From Dehalococcoidia bacterium (GTDB lineage Bacteria; Chloroflexota; Dehalococcoidia; Lucifugimonadales; UBA6952), in assembly GCA_045562575.1 (NCBI GenBank), contig JBJKVQ010000021.1, positions 2,463 through 66,462 on the forward strand: a DNA stretch of 64,000 nt, in the 5' to 3' direction. The notes under the pieces are model-generated. The model ran no database searches and was not told the origin of the DNA. It was given only the letters and a program-made list of their open reading frames with translations. Positions 10,668 through 14,694 of this stretch are shown here, in pieces (positions within the stretch are counted from its first letter, which is position 1; every line of letters starts with the position of its first letter). Made by a program: the position numbers and the translations under genes.

Positions 10668-12083
10668 TTATCCACCTGATGGTGAACCTGTTATACCGGG
10701 TTCAGTCATTTGAAAAGGATCTAGAAGTTCTTGCAATTCTTCATCAGTTAAATCAGTCTGTTCTTTTGCTATTTCTCTTACAGTTTTACCAGTTTTTTCT
10801 GCATCTTTTGCAATTTTTGCAGAAGCGTCATATCCAATACGTGGAACCAAACCAGTACATATAGCCAACCCTTTTTCGACCATATTAGGCCCTGCAGAAG
10901 TTGATTTAATACCACGCAAGCATTGCTCAATAAAATTATCAATAACTGAAGCTAATAAGGTAACAGATTGAATTAAGTTATATGCTGCGACTGGCATCAT
11001 AACATTTATTTCAAAGTTTCCAGATTGACCTGCAATAGTTACTGAAGCATCATTACCAATTACTTGAGCTGCGACCTGACAAACAGATTCAGGAATAACT
11101 GGATTTACTTTGCCTGGCATAATTGAACTTCCAGGTTGCACTTCAGGTAAAGCAATTTCAGCAAATCCCGCTCTGGGTCCAGACCCTAACCAACGTATAT
11201 CATTTGCTATTTTCAATAAACTAACAGCAATAGTTTTAGTTACACCACTTGCTTCAACCATATTGTCTAGCGTACTTTGTGCCTGAAAATGATTACTTGT
11301 TTCACGAATATCCAAATTTAAATACTTACTAAGTTTTTGACATATCAAATCAGCAAATTGAGGATGGGTATTCACTCCAGTACCTACAGCTGTACCGCCT
11401 ATAGCAACTTCAGTCAATTCAGATAACGCATGTTGTAATCGTGTTATAGCTCGATCTGATTGTCCTGCATATCCATCGAATTCTTGACCTAAACGTATTG
11501 GAGTTGCGTCTTGTAAGTGAGTTCTTCCAGTTTTTATAACATCATAAAATTCTAAACTTTTTTCTTTCAAGACAGCAGATAGTTTTTCTAAAGCAGGAAT
11601 TAATGAATGTGAAATTACTGAAGCAGCAGTTATATGAATAGCAGTAGGTATAACATCATTGGATGATTGCCCCATATTTACATGATCATTAGGATGAACT
11701 AAGCCTCGTGACCCCCGTTCCGCTCCAAGTATTTCAGCAGAACGATTTGCTATAACCTCATTCGCATTCATATTTGTTGAAGTTCCAGATCCTGTTTGGA
11801 AAATATCCACAACAAAATGCTCTTCAAATTTTCCTTCCATAACTTCATCTGCTGAAGAAATTATTGCCTTGCCTAAATTAACATCAAGTAATCCTAATTC
11901 AATATTTGTTTCAGCCGCAACTTTTTTAATCAAAGCTAAATTACTATTAAATTCTTTTGAAAATCGTAAAGTACTAATAGGGAAATTTAGAACTGCTCGT
12001 TGTGTAGAAGCTCCATAATATGCATCAGCATCAACTTCCATTTCTCCCATTGAGTCTCGTTCTATCCTTTTTTTATCACTCAT
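10668..12083 (-). CDS. fumC: Class II fumarate hydratase
   Basis: QTGSGTSTNMN, HPNDHVN, KTGRTHLQDATP, GSSIMPGKVNP. ATG 12083 follows GGAG. Confidence 0.95.
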   Translation of the reverse strand: MSDKKRIERDSMGEMEVDADAYYGASTQRAVLNFPISTLRFSKEFNSNLALIKKVAAETNIELGLLDVNLGKAIISSADEVMEGKFEEHFVVDIFQTGSGTSTNMNANEVIANRSAEILGAERGSRGLVHPNDHVNMGQSSNDVIPTAIHITAASVISHSLIPALEKLSAVLKEKSLEFYDVIKTGRTHLQDATPIRLGQEFDGYAGQSDRAITRLQHALSELTEVAIGGTAVGTGVNTHPQFADLICQKLSKYLNLDIRETSNHFQAQSTLDNMVEASGVTKTIAVSLLKIANDIRWLGSGPRAGFAEIALPEVQPGSSIMPGKVNPVIPESVCQVAAQVIGNDASVTIAGQSGNFEINVMMPVAAYNLIQSVTLLASVIDNFIEQCLRGIKSTSAGPNMVEKGLAICTGLVPRIGYDASAKIAKDAEKTGKTVREIAKEQTDLTDEELQELLDPFQMTEPGITGSPSGG

Positions 12084-12264
12084 TTTATTCTCCACAATAT
12101 TATTGATTAAAGGTATAAAAATTATAGCTGATCTAACCTGATAATAACAAGATTGAATATGAGTTTTATTTATCAGTCAATTATGTATGACTTTTATGCT
12201 TGTACCAAGTTTCCACATCACTGTAGTATTGAAATATTCACAATTATGTAAAGGTAGGGAAAAA

Positions 12265-13233
12265 ATGGTAAATGAAAATACTTTAGCATTCCAAGATATG
12301 GGTGGTGGATCCAATATGCTACCTAAATCTGAAAGACCAAAAATTGTTGATATGCGATGTAGATTAACAACTGCTTCACAATCAGACTACTTTCGACAAC
12401 GCACACAACACAGTGGAGCATATGACTCTATAAATGCATTTAAAGATGGATCTATTGAATCTTTCTTTCGAGATCTTGATGAAGCTGGCGTTACAACAGC
12501 TGTATCTGTATCAGGAATGAATAAAGGTATGACTTTAGGACATAGTGTATTCCCAGAACGAACAACTTCTAATGACGAGCAAGCTCAAATCCAAAAAGAA
12601 AACCCTGCTAGATTTGTAGCATGTGCGGGTGTAGATGCCTGGGGCGTTTTTCACGATCCGTTAGAAGAAATAGAACGTTGCAAAAAACTAGGATTCAAAG
12701 TTGTATTTATTGAGCCTGGTAGAGGACCGAATTATGCTGATAACCTAGCAGATCCACGGCTTTATCCTATTTACCAGAAGTGTCTTGATTTAGACATAGC
12801 AATTAGCCCCCAAACTTCCGGACCATTAGGTGGACTTAATATTGACTATGCCCATCCTAAATATATTGATCAGGTAGCGCATGATTTTCCAGATCTAACA
12901 ATAATTTGTGGTCATGGCCATTATCCATATATTCGAGAAATCATTACTATAGCAAGTATGAGAAGAGATAATATATATGTATCTCCTGATGCTTATTTAA
13001 CTATGCTAGGTACAGAAGATTGGGTTAAAGCAGTGAATAGTTCTTGGGGTATAGCTGATAGATTTATTTTCGGTAGCGCATACCCACTACTAAACCTAAC
13101 AAATTACACTAATTTCTTTTTCTCCCTTCCTTGGAAAGAAGAAGTGTTAGATAAAATCTGTTGGAAAAATGCTATTAATGCACTCAAACTCCACGATGTA
13201 CCGGAAATTAAAGAACTCTATGGATTAGATTAA
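12265..13233 (+). CDS. Amidohydrolase family 2 (TIM-barrel) protein with an atypical N-terminal motif
   Basis: DPRLYPIY..C, HP.YIDQVA.DFPDLTIICGHG.YPY, FIFGSAYP. Likely start ATG 12265 after AAGGTAGG. Confidence 0.85.
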   Translation: MVNENTLAFQDMGGGSNMLPKSERPKIVDMRCRLTTASQSDYFRQRTQHSGAYDSINAFKDGSIESFFRDLDEAGVTTAVSVSGMNKGMTLGHSVFPERTTSNDEQAQIQKENPARFVACAGVDAWGVFHDPLEEIERCKKLGFKVVFIEPGRGPNYADNLADPRLYPIYQKCLDLDIAISPQTSGPLGGLNIDYAHPKYIDQVAHDFPDLTIICGHGHYPYIREIITIASMRRDNIYVSPDAYLTMLGTEDWVKAVNSSWGIADRFIFGSAYPLLNLTNYTNFFFSLPWKEEVLDKICWKNAINALKLHDVPEIKELYGLD

Positions 13234-13237
13234 TACT

Positions 13238-14134
13238 ATGAATGATGAGCAATTTGACCCTGCATTTCGGCTAGCTGTTTCATACATTGATAAATCACGA
13301 CATTTTTATGCAGCACAAGGATATGAAATTCCTTATCGATGGGCTATAAATGGGGAAGTCCCTTTTCAAAAAATGACTAAACCACTATCCGAATGTAATG
13401 TTGGATTAGTTACTACAGCATCATTACCCAATCCAGATATATCCCTAGATTTTGATCCAGGAATATTGCAAATTGGATCTACTTATCAATTTCCAACTAC
13501 ACCTACACCCAATTCACTTTATACTATGGATAGATCATGGGATAAAAAAGCTACACACACGCATGACTTAGGTTCATTTTTCCCATTAGACCATCTAAAA
13601 TCTTTAGTCAAAGAAAAAAGAATCAACTCAATTTCAGAACATTTTTATGGTGCTCCTACTGACTACTCTCAACGAAAAACTAATCAAAATGTAGCCCCAG
13701 AAATATTAGCTTATATGCAAAAAGACAAAGTTGATGTTGCAATATTAGTACCTCTGTGACCTGTTTGCCATCAAACCGTGAGTTTGGTTGCACGACACCT
13801 GGAGGAAAATAATATTCCTACAGTTATAATAGGATCTGCAAGAGATATTGTTGAACAATGTGGAGTGCCAAGATACATATTTTCTGATTTTCCTCTTGGG
13901 AATCCTGTTGGTCTACCATATGATTCAGAAATGCAGATTGAAATTACGAAAATGGCATTAACACTTTTGGAAGATGCAAAGTTTCCTAGATCAACCATAC
14001 AAACGCCTTACAAATGGGATACTCATAAATGGCGAAAAGAATATATGGAAGTTAATGACTCCAACAGAGCAATTCTGGCACGAGCAGGTGAAATACGACG
14101 AGCTAGACAATCAGATCGTAAAAATGCTAATTAA
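13238..14134 (+). CDS. PrdB/GrdB-like selenoprotein B family protein (298 aa, predicted Sec at codon 174)
   Basis: ORFs 13238-13759 and 13778-14134 are in the same frame, joined by TGA (13757-13759): DKVDVAILVPL-U-PVCHQTVSLVARHLEENNIPTV. N-terminal PF..MTKPLSECNVGLVTTA and C-terminal PR..F.DFPLG.P.G resemble PrdB/GrdB. Confidence 0.85.
13766..13792 (+). promoter_or_regulatory. Candidate bacterial SECIS hairpin
   Basis: UGCCAUCAAAC-CGUGA-GUUUGGUUGCA: 10 of 11 stem positions pair (one G-U, one C/U mismatch). The loop starts 18 nt after the UGA and has G at its second position. Confidence 0.6.
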
Positions 14135-14694
14135 TGATTTGTCGCAGCCTTTCTCACAACATTTTCGCCCCAACAAATTACACGACTATTTTCATTTTTC
14201 AAAACATTTTTAGCTAAATTTTTAAGCCGAGTAATCTCATCGAGACGGCTAGCATCTAAATCTGGCCAAGTATCTAAATAAACAAAATCAAATTTTTTTT
14301 CTGTTACTACTAAATAATTATTTATATCATCATGAATTATTTCCATTTTAGGTGTTTTTATATAATCATAAACTAGATTAATAACATCTCTTGAAAATTC
14401 AACTATTGATATACTCTTAACTTTTTGTTCCAACCAGCGTGGAACAATACCTAACCCCAAACCACCAATTAAGACATCTGCATTATTAGGGCACCACCGA
14501 ACAGCACTTGACATTGTTAAACGTTCTTCTGGTCCATCACTCATCCACATTGTTTCATGATCGATTAACATAGCACCGGTGTATCGTATATATTTACCAT
14601 TAAAAAACAAGTGCGGGTGGTAACGATGAATTATAGAAAAATGGCCTGACCTTCCCTCAGGAATACGTATAAGTTTTGGTTTCTTATTTCTCAT
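14131..14694 (-). CDS. Class I SAM-dependent methyltransferase, spermidine-synthase-like
   Basis: WMSD.P.E, VLIGGLGLG (motif I), IVE....I.LV, IIHDD, FDFVYLDTW. Confidence 0.75.
   Translation of the reverse strand: MRNKKPKLIRIPEGRSGHFSIIHRYHPHLFFNGKYIRYTGAMLIDHETMWMSDGPEERLTMSSAVRWCPNNADVLIGGLGLGIVPRWLEQKVKSISIVEFSRDVINLVYDYIKTPKMEIIHDDINNYLVVTEKKFDFVYLDTWPDLDASRLDEITRLKNLAKNVLKNENSRVICWGENVVRKAATNH

Follow-up and report, generated by a model that had tools for sequence, protein, structure and literature searches.

The closest described relatives of the gene analysed here belong to the clostridial D-proline reductase, where the selenocysteine (Sec) of the PrdB subunit is reported to be essential, as a U151C variant is inactive, and where PrdB is reported to depend on PrdA and PrdH (PMC11229817). 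The name PrdB is also in use for a marine family with a UxxC motif. In the Sargasso Sea the 'Proline reductase PrdB' was listed as the third most abundant selenoprotein family, with 42 genes (PMC1088965, 2005), and the Global Ocean Sampling survey counted 235 Sec against 110 Cys members (PMC2398784, 2008). Surveys place the family with the UxxC redox proteins of the thiol-based type (PMC1088965, Table 3), and according to reviews D-proline reductase is one of the most widespread selenoprotein families (PMC9312934, PMC13188914). In those parts of the surveys that deal with the marine family it carries the label proline reductase and the missing PrdA goes unmentioned (PMC1088965, PMC2398784). 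Our literature search retrieved no paper on 'PrdB-like' proteins and none linking SAR202 with a selenoprotein. Here, we analyse a stretch of 64,000 nucleotides (nt) of a Dehalococcoidia bacterium (contig JBJKVQ010000021.1 of assembly GCA_045562575.1; hereafter the window, with all positions counted from its first letter). It carries a gene for an amidohydrolase-fold protein (gene A), directly followed by a gene for a PrdB/GrdB-like selenoprotein (gene B).

Our analysis points to gene B as a stand-alone PrdB-like Sec oxidoreductase that is independent of PrdA, and to the adjacent amidohydrolase as incidental; we give this overall reading a probability of about 60%. The genome that contains the window (G000, in which the window is contig C21) is 1.45 Mb in size with 33.7% GC, consists of 44 contigs and is 88% complete. 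The relatives with names that are closest to it are SAR202 and Dehalococcoidia metagenome-assembled genomes.

Under translation table 11 gene B is split at the TGA at 13757-13759 into open reading frames (ORFs) of 173 and 118 amino acids (aa). When UGA is read as Sec, a single protein of 298 residues is obtained with the motif U174-P-V-C177-H-Q. The homologues used for comparison were 80 loci from many phyla and 30 loci from the same order (SAR202), 110 in total. The Sec column holds TGA in 68 and a Cys codon in 12 of the 80 multi-phylum loci, and TGA in 29 and Ser in one of the 30 order-level loci. The locus with Ser (L123, G053:C87:52582-56280) is a SAR202 paralogue with an S-P-V-C motif, in which Ser stands in place of Sec or Cys and no in-frame TGA is present. 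Homologues were found in 81 of 200 genomes of the order, and almost all matches contain exactly one in-frame TGA. Both the reading frame and the sequence are kept across the UGA in more than 90 homologues. The 124 codons past the UGA are under purifying selection, with a ratio of nonsynonymous to synonymous substitution rates (dN/dS) of 0.06-0.12 relative to three lineage variants (dS 0.28-0.73). Contigs from marine RNA libraries cover both genes, with the UGA included.

A hairpin follows the codon. It consists of a lower stem (13766-13768 paired with 13790-13792), an inner stem of seven base pairs (13770-13776 with 13782-13788) and the apical loop CGUGA (13777-13781). Pairs were counted in 88 Sec forms (87 distinct sequences) and 12 Cys forms. 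All seven inner pairs are canonical in 58 of the 88 Sec forms compared with none of the 12 Cys forms, and one pair is disrupted in 11 of the latter. Compensatory changes are seen at three pairs (C-G in 55 and U-A in 20 sequences, G-C in 73 and A-U in nine, A-U in 65 and U-A in 11) and fall partly at synonymous sites. Over the Sec forms pairing is seen in 92% of the inner-stem cells; it drops to 14-36% in a control in which the 3' partner was slid along the sequence. An Rfam scan of 13000-14400 gave chance-level matches only (E of at least 2) and no family of Sec insertion sequences (SECIS).

The genome also contains the machinery for Sec insertion: tRNA-Sec is encoded on contig C8, and selA, selB and selD are present, each protein family scoring above its curated cut-off. 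Both selD (G000:C4:29339-30262) and a thioredoxin-like gene (G000:C37:5380-5667) have an in-frame TGA themselves, and therefore this 1.45-Mb genome keeps several selenoproteins. The main thioredoxin gene (G000:C8:10668-11099) lies about 40 nt from the gene for tRNA-Sec. The UGA at 13757 is a genuine Sec codon: the alignment with Cys forms, the covariation in the hairpin, purifying selection and the Sec machinery agree, and gene B was rightly described in the original prediction as a homologue of selenoprotein B.

Gene B belongs to the PrdB/GrdB superfamily but scores below the cut-offs of its curated members. It matches Pfam GRDB (PF07355) with 23.6 bits (cut-off 22; model positions 213-345 of 347) and the NCBIfam PrdB model TIGR04483 with 96.4 bits (E 1.7e-27), where the equivalog cut-off of 300 is not reached; residues 43-260 are aligned to positions 20-234 of the 238 of this model. 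The score against TIGR01918, 32.6 bits, is below the subfamily cut-off of 65.45. Hosts of the family include SAR202, Acidimicrobiia, Pseudomonadales and Alphaproteobacteria, among others. The hosts in these four groups are mostly aerobes.

An AlphaFold2 model of gene B built from an alignment of 67 sequences (pLDDT 92.4, pTM 0.91) is predicted to adopt a Rossmann-like three-layer α/β domain, in which U174 is positioned between a β-strand (167-171) and an α-helix (175-190). Sequence and profile searches of the Protein Data Bank (PDB) found no solved relative of PrdB or GrdB, and the sole sequence-level match was the CPHC region of the DsbG-like protein 3TDG (E 0.037).

Four of the five longer homologues of gene B are fused to an APH/fructosamine-kinase-like domain. 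These proteins (P0243-P0246) fall into four clusters, are 655-660 aa long and combine a Cys-form PrdB-like part with the kinase-like domain at the C-terminus. A search with the kinase domain against all loci and the genome gave one weak, non-adjacent match (L083). The fusion is a possible Rosetta-stone hint, but because the kinase is no neighbour in the other loci it is a lead only and does not identify a general partner.

The genome encodes a second PrdB-like selenoprotein (locus L001, G000:C30:22406-25816; gene at 1246-2220 of the locus, TGA at 1912-1914) with the motif U-P-V-C-N-R and 175 bits to TIGR04483. This gene is located 9 nt 3' of a gene of the fumarylacetoacetate hydrolase (FAH) family (322-1236), and contig C30 holds two more FAH paralogues. 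No further FAH pairing was found when the FAH protein was compared with the other PrdB-like loci by tblastn.

Searches for the PrdA/GrdE-type and GrdA partners of a Stickland reductase were negative. Neither PF09338 (PrdA/GrdE/GrdG) nor PF04723 (GrdA) matches anywhere in the 88%-complete assembly; prdC, grdC/D and PrdH were not searched separately. In the window's genus PF09338 is missing from each of the three genomes, of which the two mates are 92% and 98% complete, and it is likewise missing from five complete genomes that bear orthologues of gene B (Dehalococcoidia, Myxococcota, Pseudomonadales, Candidatus (Ca.) Poriferisodalis and Bordetella). The same search is positive in 15 of the 200 genomes of the order, and none of these 15 is among the 19 genomes from which UPVCHQ-type loci were fetched. 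In the control with PF04723, three of five tested genomes yielded GrdA with its own TGA, and the two that hold the nearest orthologues yielded none. The original prediction that gene B is without Stickland partners holds, since the searches for PrdA and GrdE are negative here, also in the genus mates, and positive in other SAR202 genomes. Four thioredoxin-family matches are present in the genome, all on contigs other than that of the window.

Some SAR202 families possess a full Grd-type reductase cluster (G004, locus L215, G004:C1:1974500-1986500; also G049 and G053). The cluster of G004 contains GrdA with an in-frame TGA, a full-length gene of the GrdB/F/H type (434 bits to PF07355), a GrdE/G-like gene, the β subunit of component C (614 bits, above the cut-off) and a long PrdB-like paralogue. 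The latter has a C-terminal extension of about 190 aa, and an Amidohydro_2 gene is located nearby. In four further genomes of group f5, PF09338 is found 3-4 kb from a long PrdB-like paralogue of this kind.

The pairing of genes A and B is a quirk of a single genus-level lineage of SAR202 and not a conserved two-gene system. Gene A lies directly 5' of gene B in the window's genome and its two genus mates, which is three of the 30 order-level loci, and the same arrangement is present in five metagenome contigs in which the amidohydrolase is 98-99% identical. At the nearest orthologues outside the genus (G151, 55% identity; G099, 53%) the pairing is absent, and what lies upstream is an OpuAC-like or a pentapeptide-repeat gene. 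A tblastn search of the 80 multi-phylum loci found a weak amidohydrolase-like stretch within 6 kb in three and an adjacent one in none. A hidden Markov model (HMM) of the amidohydrolase family matched four of 806 neighbouring ORFs in the 110 loci, three of them from the window's genus. Overall, the pairing is missing from 107 of the 110 PrdB-like loci. The proposal of a functional two-gene system is not supported by this comparison: adjacency is confined to the three genomes and five metagenome contigs, which in essence amounts to the uniqueness that the original prediction had named as refuting it.

Elsewhere both families keep other company. Among 97 upstream neighbours scanned, Amidohydro_2 occurs only in the three from the genus; the others include thiamine pyrophosphate enzymes (five), CoA-transferase III (four), SpoU (four), MFS transporters (three), zinc-dependent alcohol dehydrogenases (Zn-ADH; three) and many more. 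No cluster of flanking ORFs occurs in more than 13 of the 110 loci, the largest being AMP-binding (13), SDR (ten), CoA-transferase III (nine) and Zn-ADH (eight); HAD recurs in four. Peroxiredoxin is not among these top annotated clusters, which represent part of the neighbours. Seen from the other side, a PrdB-like gene is lacking from the flanks of 76 of the 81 loci of the amidohydrolase family, and the recurrent neighbours there are a TctC-type receptor (24 of 81 loci), an ATP-grasp-like protein (16) and GT2 (14). An α/β-hydrolase is another lineage-specific neighbour of PrdB-like genes (L036, L040, L042, L043, L045, L065 and related loci); in the seven-locus cluster represented by the Ca. 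Poriferisodalis locus L040 its gene is directly downstream on the same strand in all seven.

Gene A matches Pfam Amidohydro_2 (PF04909) with 79.2 bits (cut-off 26.4, E 5.8e-22), with model positions 1-47 left unmatched. Canonical members of Amidohydro_2 have an N-terminal HxH metal site. In gene A the N-terminal strand instead carries D29-x-R31-C32-R33, which is nearly invariant in a family alignment of 64 sequences. The protein is thus indeed atypical, as had been proposed. It is strongly constrained, with dN/dS of about 0.007-0.02 relative to the lineage variants L135, L137 and L139 (dS 0.35-0.76) and 98-99% identity across the lineage variants; fumC, fabI and the adjacent selenoprotein are all far less constrained. 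Orthologues are rare in the order (four of 200 genomes).

The coordinates of the locus are given in Table 1. The two genes are separated by 4 nt (13234-13237) and bounded upstream by the divergent fumC, in agreement with the arrangement that had been described from the sequence alone. An alternative upstream start for gene A is available at ATG 12187. The convergent ORF on the other side shares 4 nt with the 3' end (stop) of gene B. As a convergent boundary it stands, but its earlier label of methyltransferase is a fold guess only, because a Pfam scan gave no match and the similarity to aminopropyltransferase/SpeE is weak (E 1e-4, far under the cut-off). A promoter scan of the locus gave nine promoter-like sites against 10.0 expected from shuffled sequences, and a terminator scan found none after gene B.

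Table 1. Features of the gene A-gene B locus, in window coordinates.
Feature	Position	Strand	Basis
Gene A, Amidohydro_2-fold, 322 aa	12265-13233	+	ORF table, Pfam
Gene B, PrdB/GrdB-like selenoprotein, 298 aa, single in-frame UGA	13238-14134	+	
Sec codon UGA (U174)	13757-13759	+	Homologue alignment, Sec machinery
SECIS-type hairpin	13766-13792	+	Fold, pair counts in homologues
Class II fumarase fumC, divergent boundary	10668-12095	-	Lyase_1 and FumaraseC_C domains
Convergent ORF, boundary	14131-14694	-	Weak SpeE-like similarity

The contigs from RNA libraries leave 13814-14300 and the region upstream of 12256 uncovered, and library X3 may duplicate X1. In all four runs the contigs start at 12256 or 12262, 3-9 nt ahead of the ATG at 12265, which hints weakly at a very short leader. 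In one contig (run X2, 13636-13813) opposite strands are connected at 13636/13712, shortly before the Sec codon and the hairpin, probably through misassembly.

Two other readings of gene B itself can be set aside. If the UGA were a true stop, the locus would consist of two short ORFs or of a decaying gene, as the split under table 11 suggests at face value. The lack of a SECIS match in Rfam and the modest minimum free energy (MFE) z-score of the window's hairpin (-1.6) are in line with such a stop. This reading is ruled out by the comparative data: the frame continues past the UGA in more than 90 homologues, 12 of which have Cys at this position, the covarying hairpin is limited to Sec forms, the downstream codons are as strongly selected as stated above and the Sec machinery is complete. 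Gene B could also be the B subunit of a canonical D-proline or glycine/sarcosine/betaine reductase with its partners hidden in the unassembled 12% of the genome. The homology over the whole PrdB domain, the 88% completeness and the true Grd-type clusters of other SAR202 families speak for this. Its scores are far under the cut-offs (96 against 300 and 32.6 against 65.45), however, and PF09338 is also missing from the 98%-complete genus mate and the five complete orthologue-bearing genomes. Furthermore, the Grd cluster of G004 uses a different B subunit, and the PrdB-like protein that lies close to PF09338 in the f5 genomes is the long paralogue. A canonical reductase is close to refuted.

A link between the two genes within the genus deserves more weight but is still unlikely. 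Here the gene A protein, free of metal ligands and bearing a Cys, would act together with the selenoprotein, in one pathway or as a complex, to break a C-N, C-S or similar bond in a dissolved organic compound. In favour of such a link, all eight lineage sequences keep the gap of 2-4 nt (dS 0.25-0.94), and the junction is crossed by contigs from RNA libraries of three studies (X1, X2 and X4). Purifying selection acts on both genes and their dS is similar, so they are co-inherited. Cys32 is nearly invariant where metal ligands are expected, and a hydrolase-superfamily gene directly precedes both PrdB-like paralogues of the genome, the FAH gene being the second case. Apart from selection, these observations weigh against the pairing being incidental, as does the fourth HMM match, a different Amidohydro_2 that follows the distant paralogue L125. 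Other points count against the reading of gene B itself. For the Sec codon, MFE z-scores of the 60 nt past it do not distinguish Sec from Cys forms (Mann-Whitney p 0.85), and it was the counts of single pairs that settled the matter. For the redox mechanism, a Foldseek search with the gene B model returned nothing at E of 1e-3 or better, and VIA-align returned generic LacI-type and SDR Rossmann-like matches (Z 8-10). Against a link within the genus, the pairing is absent at the nearest outside orthologues and at nearly all loci of either family, which have other neighbours there. The tight spacing is ordinary in a genome in which ORFs of at least 100 aa span 91% of the sequence and 36% of same-strand ORF neighbours are at most 10 nt apart. 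In addition, a contig that runs over both genes is no proof of one transcript, and DNA can occur in RNA libraries. Still more doubtful is a wider proposal, in which UPVCHQ-type 'PrdB' proteins would carry out a PrdA-independent, Grd/Prd-like reductive cleavage of a carbon-heteroatom bond in substrates that bring their own activating carbonyl (such as α-substituted acids, CoA thioesters or ketoamines) and, in this SAR202 genus, would be wired to the metal-free, Cys-bearing amidohydrolase-fold protein, so that a dissolved organic compound is processed by a new route in two steps.

We return to gene B as a stand-alone selenoprotein of the short 'UPVCHQ' branch of the PrdB/GrdB superfamily. Its translation continues past UGA174 with the aid of the hairpin at 13766-13792. 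The protein most likely acts as a selenol/thiol oxidoreductase; because the fold searches gave only generic matches, its redox mechanism, reductant and substrate class are proposed from the motif and from family analogy. Sec174, placed between the β-strand and the N-terminus of the helix, would be the attacking nucleophile, and Cys177 would resolve the adduct to give a selenenylsulfide. Re-reduction of the latter would fall to a thiol system such as thioredoxin. Gene B would work without a pyruvoyl PrdA/GrdE subunit and would be neither a D-proline nor a glycine reductase. By analogy with the family, a candidate target is a carbon-heteroatom bond next to a carbonyl of the substrate itself. Gene A would be an independent, strongly constrained catabolic enzyme that ended up 2-4 nt from gene B in a single SAR202 genus, whose genome is very compact. 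There the pair is probably co-transcribed without forming a dedicated two-component enzyme. If the pairing is a local accident of gene order, it provides no handle on the substrate of the selenoprotein.

Short UPVCHQ-type 'PrdB' proteins are abundant in ocean metagenomes. The label of proline reductase is likely to be a misnomer for them, as that enzyme needs a partner that the hosts of gene B lack. This absence is seen in one genome after another, while true Grd clusters within the order provide the positive controls. Which reaction the marine 'PrdB' family actually performs is then a question about the use of selenium in the sea. Gene B appears to be a member of this family, judging by motif, Pfam assignment and habitat rather than by sequence identity. 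Like the 'PrdB' of the surveys it is marine, has a UxxC motif and matches pfam07355, and its Sec forms outnumber the Cys forms (68 of 80 being Sec here).

Among known systems, the nearest solved relative of gene A is BB4693 of Bordetella bronchiseptica (PDB entries 3IRS and 3K4W; E 8e-61 over 263 positions), which belongs to the same Amidohydro_2 subfamily and is itself uncharacterized. The matches that come next lie much further away (E 1e-9 to 1e-15) and comprise ACMSD, the decarboxylases of γ-resorcylate and 5-carboxyvanillate, and 4-oxalomesaconate hydratase. Gene B shares with the PrdB of clostridial D-proline reductase homology over the full PrdB domain and a Sec in a UxxC motif. Unlike PrdB, it carries a conserved extension at either end, each of about 40 residues, and no PrdA pyruvoyl proprotein accompanies it in the genome, the genus or the five other orthologue-bearing genomes. 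With GrdB, GrdF and GrdH it has the superfamily and the Sec-bearing C-terminal module in common (PF07355 213-345). Full-length GrdB has about 430 aa, whereas gene B with its 298 aa is without the N-terminal part of about 210 residues (two thirds), and its genome is without a match to GrdA or GrdE. Also in contrast to gene B, the B subunit in the Grd-type cluster of G004 is a separate full-length GrdB gene. Finally, gene B resembles the CxxC/UxxC oxidoreductases of the thioredoxin fold (DsbA/DsbG and glutaredoxin) in the placement of the dyad, where a strand ends and a helix begins, and in the proline that directly follows its first residue. The predicted fold of gene B is Rossmann-like, unlike theirs, and the resemblance would be one of working and not of identity.

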